From NCBI GenBank assembly GCA_965112155.1, contig OZ218100.1: DNA of 64,000 nucleotides; one strand, given 5' to 3'. Below are positions 3,991-60,685 of this stretch, piece after piece. The stretch comes from Podarcis liolepis (lineage: Eukaryota). Within the stretch, counting starts at the first letter, position 1, and each line of letters opens with the position of its first letter. The translations under genes were made by a program, and so were the position numbers. The notes beneath the pieces are model-generated. The model was given only the letters and a program-made list of their open reading frames with translations, ran no database searches and was not told where the DNA came from.

Positions 3991-4810
3991 AATTCATAAA
4001 ATTTAAATCCTATAAATGTCTGCTCAGAATCTCAATGGGACTTGCTCCAAGATACAGGATTGCAGTGTTCTTCATCACATTTCCATACTGTGCTTAAGGC
4101 AACACACAACAGTATGGGGAGAAAAATAAATAAAACTACATTCTTCTACCCACACACATTAAACAAGTCCCTGACCTTGTTTACATACGAGGTGTGATTT
4201 GTATCTGTAGTGCATTATGCCAACCACATTTTAATTTTGCTATAATGCTTCAGATAATAGTTCTGTGTACATGTTTGCAATCTGATCCTAGAGTTTTTGA
4301 AATGTTCATACCAATTTGCTAACAAGTATTACATTCAATATGTGTGGCTGCGTTGAGATCACAACTATTTTCATTATATGCTACATCTAGATTTACATCA
4401 CAGCTATGCATTAAATACAGAATTCCTGGTCATTGAGTTTTGATGAAGTGTTCATGCCACAGTGCAGTGGGTCACCCCCACATCATATTAGAAGTAGGGG
4501 GGGGAAACCTCCTGCAATTTCTTTTATATTGACAGATGAACCCATCTGCATTTTGTTAACATTTTGTTTTCATTTCTAATTTTGCCAAAACTAACTTTTC
4601 TGCAGACTTTGACTCCCTTTACTTCTGTCTAGAACTTCAGTGCATGAGTTTTAAGATGAATGTCTCAAATGTTCAAAACATTGGATATGTGCCTGAAATG
4701 ACACCTGTGTTGTGGATTTCTTTCTTTTCTTAATGTCTCTTCAATGCAGAATGAGTGGTGTGTAGATCCCTTACCTCTGGGTAAGTGGGGGAAAGCAGAG
4801 AATAACTTAC

Positions 4811-4828
4811 CGGAAACAATAAGATTTT
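4811..4828 (-). other. candidate 18-nt microexon
   Basis: Minus strand tgtctttccctgcAG|AAAATCTTATTGTTTCCG|GTAAGT: strong sites on both sides, length divisible by 3. Confidence 0.3.
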
Positions 4829-5193
4829 CTGCAGGGAAAGACATGGGTATTGCTCCAGTATGCTATGTAGAATAGTTGTTTATGAATGGCAGGGGGAATA
4901 GATGTAATCTGAATTTTATGAGTTGAAGGATGGGGGCTTCCCTCCACTTTTGGCAATGTTGGGCTTGCATTAATGTTTCACTGGCAAGCAAAACATTATC
5001 TAAAATTCAGTAATCACAGCCTTACCTAACCGAATACCCTCCATATGTTGTAGGACTACAACCTCCATCATCCCTGCCCATTGGCTGGGAGGAAACTGGA
5101 TTGAAGGAGTTTGAGTAATCATTTGTTAACCATATCTACAAAGAACCGAGCAGAAAGTCAATGTGTTGCCCTCCAGGTGTGGCTAGACTGTAT

Positions 5194-5351
5194 GGGGTGT
5201 TAGGAGTGGGGGACATGTCATGCTCCTTCTGGGGTAGTATGTCCACCTTTGGTCCACACTCAGCTCTCATCTGTGGCTCCTAGAAGCTGTCAACATGAGA
5301 CAGTGGCCACACCCCAGGAATGGCTTTGACTGGCCAGCTAAACCAGGTGAG
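5194..5351 (+). ncRNA. HDV-like (delta-like) self-cleaving ribozyme fold
   Basis: P1 GGGGTGT 5194-5200 / ACACCCC 5309-5315; P2 CTCATCTGT 5266-5274 / ACCAGGTGAG 5342-5351; P3 GGC 5275-5277 / GCC 5306-5308; L3 begins TCCTAG; P4 TGGC/GCCA; J4/2 GCTAA with C5338. Confidence 0.7.
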
Positions 5352-5400
5352 GCTAGCCAATGGTAGTTCAATCAGCAGTCAGATTTTCCATGAATTGCCG
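5194..5400 (+). mobile_element. RTE-clade non-LTR retroelement 5' UTR fragment
   Basis: ctctcatctgtggctcctagaagctgtc...ggccacacccc...gctaaaccaggtgagg resembles recalled amniote RTE 5' UTRs; begins exactly at a ribozyme P1 strand. Confidence 0.6.
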
Positions 5401-7555
5401 TTTGCTCCTATTCAAAGGTAAAACATGTGTGTTCCCTGGGGAAAGTGTTGCGGGGGGACCATGGCTCTGTCACGTGCCTGGAAAGCTTGGACCTGTACCT
5501 AGAAAGCACAGAGCAAAGGTTAGTGTGGTGGACCCTCGGTGAATGCTGGCACCCAAGCCCAAATGAGGAGCTACTGTCCCTCCTTCAACTCCTCACTCAC
5601 CATCACATGATTCATTCTCTGTTTCTTCCCATTGGGATGCACTGCTTCTTTGTTTCTTCTAACGTCAGGCCTCGGGGCAGCTCCTACTATTAAGCAGACT
5701 GAGGTTCCCACCTTAGGTGGCAGATCTCAGGCTACCATCAAAGGCCAGCAAATTATCAATGATTGAGTTTATTATATGTTTTACCACCACTGAGAAAGCT
5801 CCCTTGAACCTTCTGCCTGAGGCACTAAAATGTGTAGGGTCATCTCTGTCCAGCCCTCCATTTTTTTTACCTCTGCCATTCCTGAGTAGTAGAAAAAAAT
5901 GTGCACAAAGGATAATTTTTGGAGGAGATACAATTAAATAAATCTGTAATGTTGTGTTGAAAGCTGTAAATCAGCCAAAGCACGAGGTTTAAAAGTACAG
6001 CTTTATAGGCAACCACAGTCCAGTCAGCCTAAACTTGTTTGGGCAATTTAATTACAAGCGAGGTATTTTTAAGAGAGTAGGTAATTTTAAAGTCAGTTTA
6101 GATAATTCTTCATTACGAGCCACTTGCCTCATAAATGAAATCTATGTAAACTAAATTGTTAAAAGGGTCTTCAACTTCATAAACTTTACGACTAAGATTT
6201 TCCAGGAAAATAGATCTTGTGTCTATAATAGACCTTATGGAGACAATCTTCCAGGACGATTCCAAGGATTTAAAAGCAACAGCTTTTTAGTTTGGAATAA
6301 ATTCTGTCCCCCTCAAGAGAGGCTTGTGGCTGAAATGTGCAGTGTGTTTCCCATCAGTGGAGCAAACAAGATGAGAAACGATCTTCCTTTGCTCATGTAG
6401 AAATATTGAGAATAGATGCTCCTGTGTAAAGATATTATATGTGATATTTCGTTTGGGTCCTCCGTGCCCCCCAAATGTTATTTATTCATTCTGTAATGGA
6501 ATGGGCCTTCCTCTGGATTGTCACAAGCCAGATTGAAGCAGGCTGTGGCACAAGCAGGAGGGTCGCATCAAAGGATCTTTGCATACAGACTGGCTTATAT
6601 GTAAGACGGCATTCCTTCGAGTATCCAGTCCTAGGTTGTTTAGGATTCTGTACTTCTAGAAAAGAATCTTAAATTTGGCTCAGTAGCGAATTGGTAACTG
6701 GTGCAGTTTTTCTATTTTTATTGTTTCTTTCATAAGATATACACCCCGCATGATTGTAAAAAAAGCCTCAAAGCGGTTCCCAAAAAGATAAGACAATAAA
6801 ACCCAGAAAAATTCACAACCATCGTCCCTGGCCATTGGCCACCCTGCCTGGGGCTGATGGGAACTGGAGTTCAGGAACATCTGGAGAGCCCCAGGTTTCT
6901 TATCCCCAGTTGCTGTTAAGCAAGCTTGAAGAACATGCTCTAAACATGAAGAATTTGTCACCATTTAAACATGATCTCATTTTATGAGAATGATGAGTGG
7001 AATAGTAAATCAATCAGCTTCAGTTTAATTTTTTTCTCCTTTTTGTATGTTTGCTGGGCTTCATTTTTTCATATATATTTTTTGCACTGAAACTTAATTT
7101 TCTGACTTTCCAAACAATTGATAAACCTGTCAAGGGTATATATATATAGAGAGAGATAATAGTTTCATTATTGCATCCCTTTATTTGCACATGTGTTGAG
7201 TTTGCCCTGCTGTTATGACTTGCACAGGCAGTAGATAATCACAGGGTTAGCTTTTCAGAAACTAAAATAGTTCTGGGTGGTGCTTGTAAATGTTCAGAGT
7301 GCACACATATCAAAACCCAAGAAGCCACACTTCATCACAGATTTCGTATGTGGATATATAGTGATACTTAGAATTCTTCAGAGAAGAAGAAAAATATCCT
7401 GAACTACCCTGGGTTTTTGTGTTTGTTTGTTCAATTTGAAAGTGTGCAATTATTCCCTGTTTAGACATCATGAAACAAAGGATGCCATGAAATGTCCTTG
7501 AGGATTTGTTTCTGAATTCTGCTTGTAATATTCTTGATAATTATGGTGCTAGATA

Positions 7556-7690
7556 AGGAATGGGGAACCGGTGGCCCTTCAGATGTTGTTGAACCACAAT
7601 TCCCAGCCACCCCAACCAGCATAGCCAATGCATAGGGATGATGGCAGCTGTAGTTCAACATCTGGAGGGCCATAGCTGCCTCATCCCTCT
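7556..7690. mobile_element. short hAT-type MITE (abundant ~130-bp family; degraded relatives near 5040, 6820, 15590, 17410, 35925, 51445, 56715)
   Basis: Palindromic core ggcccttcagatgttgttgaac...gttcaacatctggagggcc, same family as 60550-60685. Confidence 0.7.
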
Positions 7691-15086: not shown

Positions 15087-17031
15087 GTTGTGTGTATGGA
15101 GGGGTGTATTGCACCTCATCACCACCACAATGCAGACAGCCTTATTATTTAGTTAAGTGGTCCTATACCTCTTTGTTTAGAAATTCCTAGCAAGCATCAC
15201 AGTCTGGTGGCGTGTGTGTGTGCAAGCTTCAGGCTTTGCATTTTTCTTATGGCTGCATTCATTGCAAATTTATTTTAGGAAAACATCTTACTTGTATTAA
15301 TAAAGTTGGGAAAATATCCGTGTGGCCAACAACATGTGCCAAGAAAAATGGTTTGGCTACTCCTTTCCGCTGCATGCATGCATGTGTGGTACTGGCAAAA
15401 AAATGACCTCTCTGAGCAGCAGGTGTAAAAAGACTGCTTGAGTATCGGATGAATTCCTTTTGTATATTTTAAAGCAAAGCAGCAAGAAACTTTCGTCATA
15501 CTTCTGAAACATATTAGGGATGAGCTCCCCTGATCTCTGTGATAGGTTGGATTCTGTAGCAGTTCTTAGAATGTATATGAGGCTTTAGAGCAGCAGTGGG
15601 AAACCTGTGACCCTCTGGATGTTGCTGAGCTACATCACATTGACCATTGGGCAGGCTGGCAGGCTGGCTGGTGGAGTCCATCAACATCTGGAAGCCCACA
15701 GGTTCCCCAGCTGGGCGTTAGAACAGGGGACTCCAACTCCCATCAGCCCCAGCGAGCAAGGCCAATGGTCAGGGATTATGGGAGTTCAAGTCCAAAATAT
15801 TTGGACGGCACTACGTTGGCGACCCCTGCTCTAAAATCTTCAGAGGTTCACATATCTCATCTCAGTAACTAGCAGTGAGTCACCATCCCTTTCTATTTTC
15901 AAAGTCAGAAAAAACAGCCTCCCGATTGTTTCCTAATCCATGTACCCACAACTGGAAACACTCCTATTCAAATGCTACAAAATACATAGCATTTAATATA
16001 CAGCATGCCTCAAAATTCTGACTTTTTATCTCTTTGTGAGAAAAAGTACATGGCTTAGAAAGATCACTCCTTGCTTTAAGCACCCTTTATAAGAGCTGAG
16101 GAGAGGAACTCTATTGGCACACTTTGTGGGAACAGATGGCAGTAAAGCATGTTAAAGACTAACTAATCTGTGATAAGTCCTTTTGAGAATACTCTCTGAG
16201 TTTTTTAAAAAATCCTGTTCTCACTGACAAGATATTTGTTAAAAAATAAACAGTGGGGAGATATAAACAAAACCTGTGCACACATGTTTTTATATTCAGT
16301 TGCCTCCTTGAACATACATTTTAAAAACAATGTCTTGAAAGTGATCTTAAAACTTGGAGTGGTTGCTTTAATCTACATTAATTATTATAGAAACAAAAAT
16401 GGAAAGTGATTCATTCCTGGTTCATTCACCCAGAGTGAAAATAAAAAACATAACAACTCAGCTTGGTGCTTTTCCTTGGCCAGCGTCACACAGTCGCTAG
16501 AGTTAGGTTTGGAAAACCAGATGGAAATCTCTGCTTATGCAAACCACGGTTGCTTGCGTAGCCTGGCTGACATCACAGGGTTATAGGCAGGATGAGATAA
16601 GGATATTTTGGAACATTCCTTAATAGTAAAAAGAGCAAGTTGCCTCCTGAAGGCAGAGTGATTCATATGGCCCCTTTGAACCTGATGTGGTCTCGTTGAC
16701 TGGAGCCCTTTTCAATGATGAATGTAGGTTTAAGTTTAATTTCTTCTGCAGGGAGGCGATAGTGGTGTCAGACAGTAGTCCTTACCTAAAGACATTTCAT
16801 AGACTGGGTCCAAACCTGTGGAACTCCCTCATGACTGAGATTAGGCAGGCACCCTCCTTGTTGAACGTCAGGTGCACAACAAAGACTTTATTATTCCATC
16901 AGGTATTTTAAGGTAGTGTTTGGTTTTATGGTGAGTTTTTACTGTTTAATCCTTGGTGTGGTTTATTTTTATGCACATCACTTAGAAATCCTAATGATTA
17001 AATGGTATATAAACACCTTAAATGAATAATA

Positions 17032-34034: not shown

Positions 34035-36173
34035 ATATTGTTGTGCTCTTCGAGCAGTGAGTACTTCTCTTGGAATAGTGCAAGGTTACAAGGGTGCAGG
34101 TCCTTTCCTTGTGGAAGAAGGTGGCAGGAGGCTTATAGGTGTTTTGTAAGATTTGCATGTATTTACTGATATACAGGTTGAGCATAGGTGGAGACACAGT
34201 TTAAATATTCCAACAGCCCAAAGTAGTTTTGTTTTGTTTAATTCCAGTTTAGGATTATTGGATTAAATATTCTTAGCAACCATTTTTAATAAGTGAGAGG
34301 AAGTGTGGGATCATGGCTAAGTGTGTACACAGTGAGATGGGAAGCACCTCCTCTTAGCCATGAACTTGTTAGGTGGCTTTAGGCAAATCCAGTAGGATTC
34401 TCCCTTTCTCTGCTGTCACCAACATCCATTCCACCCAGCTGAAAGCAGGGACTGTCTTGTTTTTATTGTGCTTGTGTAAGTCACCCTGAAAGCCTTTTCA
34501 CCTAGGATAAAAATTCCTTAAATAAATGAATATATTACTGCCTCCACTCCTGCCAGACCAGCAGTCTGGCAATCAGTTATTATTGTGTTTGTTTATTTAT
34601 TTATTACATTTGCATCTCATGTTTCTTCAGTCAAACTTAAGGTAGCATGCATGGGGTTACCAGACCATCCTCTATCCTGTCACTGACCAAGTTTTGTTCA
34701 TCTTTACCTTCAGACCAGAGTCTTACCTGGCTTCCCTTATGAGGATGTTGCAAGAATTACCAAGGCAATGCATATAAAGAGCTTTGGACATTTGAATTCT
34801 GCTGTATTTATTATCAGCATCACAGAACTCTTTCAACAGATGAGATTAATCATATGCAGAAAGCCGTATAATTTGGTTGTGATGAGTACCTATCATGCTT
34901 TGTACATTTGCTGGTGAATTGTGTAGTTGTGCTCTTATCTTAGATACATGAACATAGCCAGAGAGCACAAACATCCATCAATAGGAGTCAACATGGATGG
35001 AGGAGGGAATTTTACCAGCTCCACTCAGCAGATTAGCAGTTTGTAGGTGATGAAAGCCAATTATCACATAGCAATTGATGCAAGAACTTTCACACGTTCA
35101 CATTATAAAGAAATAGCCATTATCATATAGATATTATAATGTGTGTAACTACTCTTAAGGGTTCATCTTTTTAAAAAGCTGATGCAAGAGCAGGTGGATT
35201 AAATTAAATAAACTAAATGCAATCTAATTAGCCACCAGATTCACAAAACACCACAAAAATTAGGATGCCCTCATTGGACATGAGATATTATGTGAACCCA
35301 AGCAGTTTTGTTTACCCAGTCTAGACAGGACCACAAAGAAGTACTTCATTGACATAATACAATGGTAAGAAGTTTGGGTAGAATCACTGATGCCAAAAAG
35401 AAGAGGCATTAACAAAAAAGGAACAAAGAGAAATGGCACTAAGTGCTGCTGAACATCAAATGGACTGGGGCAGGGAAATAATGAATGAAGATTACAGAAA
35501 GGAACAGACAGCTGTACTGGGTGTGATAGTCTCAGCCCTTCAAAATGCAGCCAGCCCACTTTTTTTATATATGAGAAGCAAAGCTTTCTTGAATCCTTAA
35601 GGTTGCCTGTCTTAGAATTAAGTATTAGAATTTCTGGTCCAGCAGATTAACATACCGACTGCAGCAAGATGGAAGTGAGTCAGTCTTCAAGTATTTCTGC
35701 ACCTAAACAAACAGATTTTACTCAAGAAAGAAAAATATTTTTCACTTCCATTATAAATGGCAGGGATGTGGTGGCTGAGCTCTATCTACATCATAAGCCA
35801 GGAATCTGTCATTGGAATGGGACTAGGGTTACTATGCACACTTTTATCTTGGAGCTAGTCCCAGTGAGCTCAGTAGGACTCACTTCCTAAACATGCATAG
35901 GATCGCTCTACATGAAGTGCAAACAGGGCATCCTTCACCAGCCTGGTGCTCTCCAGATGTTTTGGTCTACAACTCCCACCAGGCCTGAGCAGCACATGCT
36001 GACTGGGGCTGATGGAAGTTGTAGTCCAAAATATATGAACAGCACCAGGTTGGTGACGGCTGAAATAGTGTGGTAAACATGGGACCAGATCCAAGTGGTA
36101 TTTGAGGTCACACATATCAGGCAGCTGTCCATCACTTTTGTACAAACATAAGGTGCATCACATGCAGTCTGGA

Positions 36174-44175: not shown

Positions 44176-44479
44176 GGGCTCATCCCCCACTTTTGTTCCA
44201 CATTTTCTAGGCACAGGTCCACACTTTCCCAGTCGGTGTCCAAGTGCTTTTTTATTTTTTCGGTCCCATCGCTTTCCCCAGGAAAACCCACTCTCTACTG
44301 CTGAATCAAAACAAATGGCAATTCAGGTTTTCCATGGATTGCCATTTGCTCCGATTCAACAGTAGAGAGTGGGTTTTCACCAGAAAAGTGCCAGGGCAAA
44401 GACAAAAGCTGTTGGAAATGGCCTGCAAAGCCCAGACCTGTGCCTACAAATGTGGAGCAAGATAAGCGTGGATGAGCCC
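44176..44479. mobile_element. fold-back MITE (PIF/Harbinger-like; relative at ~12147-12420)
   Basis: GGGCTCATCC...GGATGAGCCC ends with nested inverted arms (taggcacaggtc/gacctgtgccta; gaaaacccactctctactg/cagtagagagtgggttttc). Confidence 0.75.
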
Positions 44480-60549: not shown

Positions 60550-60685
60550 CAGTGATGGCCAAACTTGGCCCTCCAGCTGTTTTTGGACTACAACTCCCAT
60601 CATCCCTAGCTAACTGGACCAGTAGTCAGGGATGATGGGAACTGTAGTCCCAAAGCAGCCGGAGGGCCGAGTTTGGCCATCACTG
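60550..60685. mobile_element. hAT MITE, 136 bp, palindromic
   Basis: TIRs CAGTGATGGCCAAACT / AGTTTGGCCATCACTG; perfect 8-bp TSD TCTTAAGT. Confidence 0.93.

Follow-up and report, generated by a model that had tools for sequence, protein, structure and literature searches.

A family of non-coding repeats in Podarcis liolepis carries at its 5′ end what was probably an HDV-like self-cleaving ribozyme with a hairpin in its L3 loop. The window (64,000 nt, one strand, from contig OZ218100.1 of assembly GCA_965112155.1) holds one copy of this fold, at 5194..5351. We read it, with a probability of about 0.7, as part of the decayed 5′ head of an RTE derivative whose master RNA was HDV-like, was cut immediately 5′ of the first strand of a tandem GGGGTGT pair, tolerated the hairpin in L3 and was copied by a partner RTE. 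The L3-expanded form is what appears to be new; HDV-like ribozymes at the 5′ ends of RTE, R2 and L1Tc elements, and RTE derivatives made of two parts, are already known (PMC5786205, PMC6765202, PMC3774820, PMC4035085).

The features of the window copy are listed below. Residue names (U20, G25, G38 etc.) follow the numbering of the HDV ribozyme.

5189..5363, + strand: decayed 5′ remnant of the ~740-bp element (consensus 5-20 and 39-203)
5189..5191, + strand: last three bases (TGT) of the first GGGGTGT, probably the true P1 5′ strand; its first four bases are absent in this copy
5194..5200, + strand: second GGGGTGT, taken as P1 in the earlier note; the only full P1-capable strand remaining in the copy
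5201..5264, + strand: J1/2, 64 nt, shortened in this copy by two deletions (about 18 nt and about 8 nt)
5265..5274, + strand: P2 5′ strand, pairing with 5342..5352
5275..5277, + strand: P3 5′ strand GGC, invariant across four published relatives
5278..5305, + strand: L3, 28 nt; the equivalents of U20, C21, C22 and G25 are kept (T5278, C5279, C5280, G5283)
5286..5304, + strand: 19-nt hairpin, probably inserted, of 6 bp with a 7-nt loop, directly 3′ of the G25 equivalent
5286-5291 and 5299-5304, + strand: the two strands of the L3 hairpin stem
5306..5315, + strand: P3 3′ strand GCC followed by P1 3′ strand ACACCCC (5309-5315)
5316..5317, + strand: P1.1 partner, GG in the ancestral element, with A5316 in this copy
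5321..5336, + strand: P4 hairpin, 4 bp with an 8-nt loop, showing CpG decay on both strands in this copy
5337..5341, + strand: J4/2, GCTAA, with putative catalytic C5338; invariant across four published relatives
5342..5352, + strand: P2 3′ strand, starting with A and then a bulged C, a junction shared with the BovB-like fold described below

The earlier note had drawn P1, P2 with one bulge (a C), P3, L3 with its stem, A5316 and J4/2 at these same places, and its J1/2 of ~65 nt measures 64 nt. The hairpin AGGAG...CTCCT that it had proposed within J1/2 was rejected as a family feature: AGGAG sits at a deletion junction specific to this copy, and its partner in RNAfold is 5277-5281, at the P3/L3 boundary. 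AGGAG is predicted to trap the start of P3 and L3 in the window copy. This copy has also lost four of the seven first-strand P1 bases, G38 (A5316) and about 18 plus 8 nt of J1/2. It is probably inactive, in agreement with the impairment that had been suggested for it. The reading of A5316 as CpG decay also stood, since 22 of 63 copies keep G at this position and the C/T-G/A pattern is that of other CpG sites.

The arrangement was searched for with a descriptor of the HDV double pseudoknot that allowed an L3 of 6-40 nt and a one-pair P1.1. With both strands of the 64 kb searched, the window copy was its sole match, and none of 2000 dinucleotide shuffles of 5181-5365 matched; a looser descriptor matched this copy and one further site in the window, and one of 1000 shuffles. 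Under a strict descriptor with a two-pair P1.1 the window copy fails, passing only with one pair. A CpG-aware family consensus, in which no core pair or conserved base is lost, matches the strict descriptor, which none of 3000 shuffles did. U20, G25, the C22-G38 pair, the position of the catalytic C and the CNRA of J4/2 are all the family majority, with G38 restored from the CpG pattern. P1, P3, P1.1, U20, G25 and the catalytic C are kept jointly in 7 of 64 copies. Taken by itself, the L3 stem is statistically weak: at least six Watson-Crick pairs form in 218 of 5000 (4.4%) shuffles of the 28-nt loop.

These figures bear on the simplest alternative, a chance arrangement in the G+C-rich head of a repeat with no ribozyme history. 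A scan of 4500-6200 against Rfam (E ≤ 10, including the HDV, CPEB3 and drz-Agam models) gave no ribozyme family, pseudoknot-free folding of 5184-5360 is unremarkable (z −0.98), and covariation is absent among the copies, all of which such an origin would allow. It sits poorly with the shuffles and with a fold that begins at the exact start of the element, and it is largely refuted by the pair-keeping changes in the echinoderm and snake relatives described below; we regard it as highly improbable.

The carrier was reconstructed from copies in the same genome (40 scored and 30 fetched among 2,873 candidates). The 742-nt consensus, built from 23 near-full copies, describes a non-coding element of ~740 bp with a (CAA)n tail and a median divergence of 8.6% outside CpG sites. 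Of 41 copies that retain both ends, 9 have target-site duplications (TSDs) scoring at least 8, compared with none of 150 swapped pairs; no TSD could be assigned to the truncated window copy, and the remainder of the element was not found elsewhere in the window. The middle of the element matches, by eye, the RTE 5′-UTR domain given in the supplement of Kojima 2018 (PMC5786205). Its last ~60 nt are common to a decayed LINE of the same genome that retains the C-terminal region of an RT and a CCHC end. In addition, a longer subfamily (~870 bp, 256 candidates) has the same head and more of the parental UTR, joined to the end of the partner ORF. The RTE 5′-UTR middle, the shared 3′ tail and the longer subfamily together identify the element as a two-part non-autonomous RTE derivative. 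The earlier note was right in assigning the fold to an RTE-type 5′ end; the carrier itself is not an autonomous RTE.

The partner LINE is represented by 3,318 candidates, and all examined copies are 5′-truncated (8 of 8 extended loci). A full-length autonomous partner was not recovered; of 30 loci, none led on from the 5′ UTR to an ORF for an endonuclease. A young BovB-like RTE of the same genome, found by a protein search, was considered as the partner and rejected; neither of its ends is common to the ~740-bp element. A search for subfamilies by linked substitutions gave no significant result (best p 1.2e-4 among 4,518 tests), and the CpG-intact motif occurs in three copies, none of them young. 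A motif search of the genome for further RTE families returned one match, itself a member of the ~740-bp family; searching the same genome for RTE ORFs with Pfam DUF6451 gave no matches, but the control was equally silent, which makes this search uninformative. Bipartite RTE derivatives of similar build (RTESINE1/2, MAR4_MD and RTE-N2_Lch) differ in that neither a structure nor an L3 insert is described for them in the available parts of Kojima 2018 (PMC5786205).

Sequencing reads that fall on the window at 80% likeness come mostly from other copies; most unique flanks have zero raw-read depth, and no pile of read ends was seen. A diverged copy of the family head appears to be amply covered by single-cell RNA reads from a related organism (on window 5303-5364).

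The family opens with two tandem GGGGTGT strands, the second beginning 9 nt downstream of the first, and either could in principle serve as the 5′ strand of P1. The earlier note had predicted cleavage just 5′ of G5194, at the second strand, and had suggested checking whether the 5′ ends of the family pile up there. Among 90 oriented copies, 69 reach the 5′ region. The ends do pile up, at the first strand: 27 of 69 fall exactly at consensus position 1 and 38 of 69 at positions 1-3. Positions 9-11, which correspond to 5194, account for 7 of 69. A further 12 of 69 fall at positions 4-8, including five at position 7. The main end of the family is therefore nine bases upstream of the predicted one, and the family RNA likely cut itself there. 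The consensus upstream of position 1 is featureless. In 21 of the 27 full-length copies a T directly precedes the first G, and in several it is the last base of the TSD.

Folding energies point in the same direction. The first-strand register is favoured by 7.7 kcal/mol (−68.6 versus −60.9 kcal/mol), and over nt 1-160 its pair probability is 0.93 versus 0.00 for the second. A competing fold exists: in a pseudoknot-free fold of nt 1-200 the first strand pairs with the 3′ strand of J1/2 (0.75) over P1 (0.05). If P1 is formed by the first strand, the second would close the long helix of J1/2 as its outer stem (P1.2). The family-consensus J1/2 of 95 nt is predicted to form one such helix, and the outcome is an architecture with short linkers, a structured J1/2 and a P2 of 12 bp with one bulged C.

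It is quite unlikely that P1 and the cut belong instead to the second strand at 5194, or that both strands are alternative cut sites of equal standing in the family. Such a register has in its favour that the second GGGGTGT is a perfect partner for P1 and that 7 of 69 ends fall at positions 9-11, with some of those at position 7 possibly being the same end plus a chance match of the flank. Against it stand the 27 of 69 ends that lie exactly at position 1, the 7.7 kcal/mol and the published relatives. The second run of all three echinoderm relatives has bases after its GGGG that could not pair with the P1 3′ strand, and in Apostichopus the first strand covaries with that 3′ strand. In the two relatives whose 5′ end is present, the first strand alone is able to form P1. 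Nevertheless, the second strand may be a minor cut site, given the 7 of 69 ends at positions 9-11 and the five at position 7.

The relatives are four RTE-Snek_2-like records in the supplementary data of Galbraith et al. 2020 (PMC7846101), found with a short-motif search and compared by eye. They come from two sea urchins (Strongylocentrotus and Hemicentrotus), a sea cucumber (Apostichopus) and a sea snake (Aipysurus), and their near-identical P1 3′ strand and P2 make them, by eye, evident homologues of the family. Unlike the non-autonomous ~740-bp element with its 28-nt L3, they are autonomous and have an L3 of 7 nt. The predicted HDV-like folds at the 5′ ends of the RTE-Snek_2 records appear unannotated in PMC7846101, as the word ‘ribozyme’ is absent from its text and supplement.

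The earlier note had named covariation as a check on the fold, and the outcome differs between levels. By eye, P3, UCC, G25, GG and GCTAA-AC are invariant in all four relatives, and two-sided changes that keep pairing occur in P1, P2 and P4: in Apostichopus a G-C pair of P1 has become A-U; in P2, one C-G pair has turned into G-C in three relatives and is G-U in the fourth, and another C-G pair has become U-A in Aipysurus; and P4 is formed by three different pairing stems. The Hemicentrotus record has one broken pair in each of P1, P2 and P4, and the 5′ strand of P1 is absent from two of the four records. Within the family no compensatory change was detected beyond CpG decay; in P4, 21 apparent compensations among the copies compare with 20.3 double changes expected. 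Such a lack of covariation is to be expected when copies decay neutrally from a single master.

The earlier note had seen the long, stem-bearing L3 in one copy, and the whole family shares it: searches with exact flanks gave 140 long loops and two short ones, with none in reversed-pattern controls, and the two short matches look like deletions. Among 64 copies, compensatory changes in the L3 stem did not exceed expectation, and all four relatives are without the insert, so that neither set gives the hairpin covariation support. Because L3 is 7 nt, with no hairpin, in four of four relatives, the most likely reading of the hairpin is a later insertion 3′ of G25. The nucleotide that follows G25 shows little conservation in the antigenomic HDV ribozyme and is flexible or bulged there (PMC3386971). 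Published descriptors of HDV-like ribozymes set L3 as TYYHCG*Y or TNCNCGY (7-8 nt) and J1/2 at ≤51 nt (PMC4870747). The expectation that standard descriptors would miss the variant is thus borne out on all three counts: L3 has 28 nt rather than 7-8, position 24 is A in the family, outside the published L3 motifs, and the length of J1/2 fails as well.

The same observations can be read differently, as a fold inherited from a ribozyme-bearing RTE ancestor and disabled by the L3 insertion, with the element spreading from an internal promoter. Were transcription to start at +1, as with Pr77 in L1Tc, the 5′ pile-up would mark transcription starts, and it is compatible with such a promoter. L3 belongs to the active site, and its length is 7-8 nt in the published descriptors and 7 nt in all four relatives; the hairpin is without covariation; and the 5′ end of L1Tc is both promoter and ribozyme (PMC3383444). 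This reading has to accommodate a CpG-aware consensus that has all core pairs and conserved bases in place and matches the strict descriptor, the same head in two subfamilies, and an insert that falls at the most tolerant position of L3. We consider it unlikely on these grounds.

We therefore return to a ribozyme that tolerated its insert. In the mechanism that we propose, the master RNA would have folded as an HDV-like ribozyme with the 19-nt hairpin in L3, and self-cleavage just before the first of the two tandem GGGGTGT strands would have released it from read-through transcripts. The second GGGGTGT would close the long J1/2 helix, and this helix and the 12-bp P2 would keep P1 and P2 joined in the manner of drz-Agam-2. 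The hairpin would point outward from the flexible site after G25 and be tolerated on the surface, with the equivalent of C5338 as the putative catalytic C. The reverse transcriptase of the partner RTE would recognise the common 3′ tail and copy the cut RNA.

Ribozymes of the drz-Agam-2 type are linked to RTE elements. Those of mosquito (Webb et al. 2016, PMC4908430) share with the element the nested double pseudoknot, a long structured J1/2 (P1.2), a 12-bp P2 and short linkers, and in drz-Agam-2-1 the structured J1/2, short linkers and 12-bp P2 speed the reaction (PMC4908430). Unlike them, the element has a 28-nt L3 with a hairpin, has A24, and has an outer J1/2 stem predicted to be made from a tandem copy of the P1 strand. 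Ribozymes of R2 and of L1Tc/NARTc (PMC3774820, PMC4035085) belong to different clades; they likewise lie at the 5′ end of the element and are kept in short non-autonomous derivatives, and their U20, G25 and catalytic C are conserved as in the ~740-bp family. They vary in P1, P2, P4, J1/4 and the spacing of L3 (Nasonia), and no L3 hairpin is reported in the available sections of these papers (PMC3774820, PMC4035085). More generally, no hairpin in L3 of an HDV-like ribozyme was found in the literature searched, which comprised available portions of published work other than Ruminski 2011 and Webb and Luptak 2011.

In the family the loop of the L3 hairpin holds a self-complementary GCAUGC (consensus 133-138), which carries two substitutions in the window copy. 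The hexamer recurs ~100 nt downstream, at about 236-241, either by chance or as a pairing partner. In crystals, CPEB3 ribozymes dimerise through a palindrome in L3 (bioRxiv 10.1101/2022.09.22.508989); by analogy, a role of the hexamer in dimerisation of the ~740-bp element would be speculation. A bolder proposal, which we hold to be doubtful, is that an RTE lineage with an active HDV-like ribozyme has acquired a new peripheral domain in L3, whose self-complementary loop kisses a second RNA or the downstream hexamer and so gates cleavage, and that the same domain may extend from reptiles to cartilaginous fish, out of reach of standard descriptor and Rfam searches.

Variation in HDV-like ribozymes is known in J1/2 and P4, while L3, a part of the active site, is treated by descriptors as fixed at 7-8 nt. 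Homologues with and without the 21-nt L3 insert make the tolerance of L3 for a peripheral domain directly testable. If L3 accepts such a domain, vertebrate RTE ribozymes present in thousands of copies per genome would have been missed by searches. The question is also relevant to the way in which the 5′ ends of RTE elements are set, a point of importance for gene-insertion tools based on RTE.

The young BovB-like RTE, with an ORF of 1036 aa, has a predicted HDV-like fold of its own that starts at the first base of the element. The fold was present in five of five loci tested (six were fetched) and in none of 1000 shuffles. It has a C1-G pair, a 7-nt L3 that does not match the motifs of standard descriptors, a P1.1 of one G-C and a U-U, and a branched P4; its entry into P2 has the same A followed by a bulged C as in the ~740-bp family.

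Scans were also made outside this genome. In a metagenome scan with the RTE 5′-UTR motif, none of 120 loci had an upstream match to the G1/UC descriptor, and a loose descriptor gave one doubtful locus among the 120; two metagenome loci of the scan carry RTE ORFs. Some metagenome loci hold animal RTE elements with ~71-nt tandem repeats of the conserved 5′-UTR domain; their 5′ end is structured, but the descriptors do not class it as HDV-like. Viral scans (0 and 1 matches) and a scan of prokaryote genomes (23 matches) yielded seed-only chance matches, all of which were rejected.

Other short repeats lie on either side of the feature in the window. The one at 5037-5086 has further matches at 7623-7669, 15761-15808, 36006-36037 and 60569-60607, and those at 5379-5415 and 5480-5505 have matches at 44323-44359 and 44204-44229, respectively.
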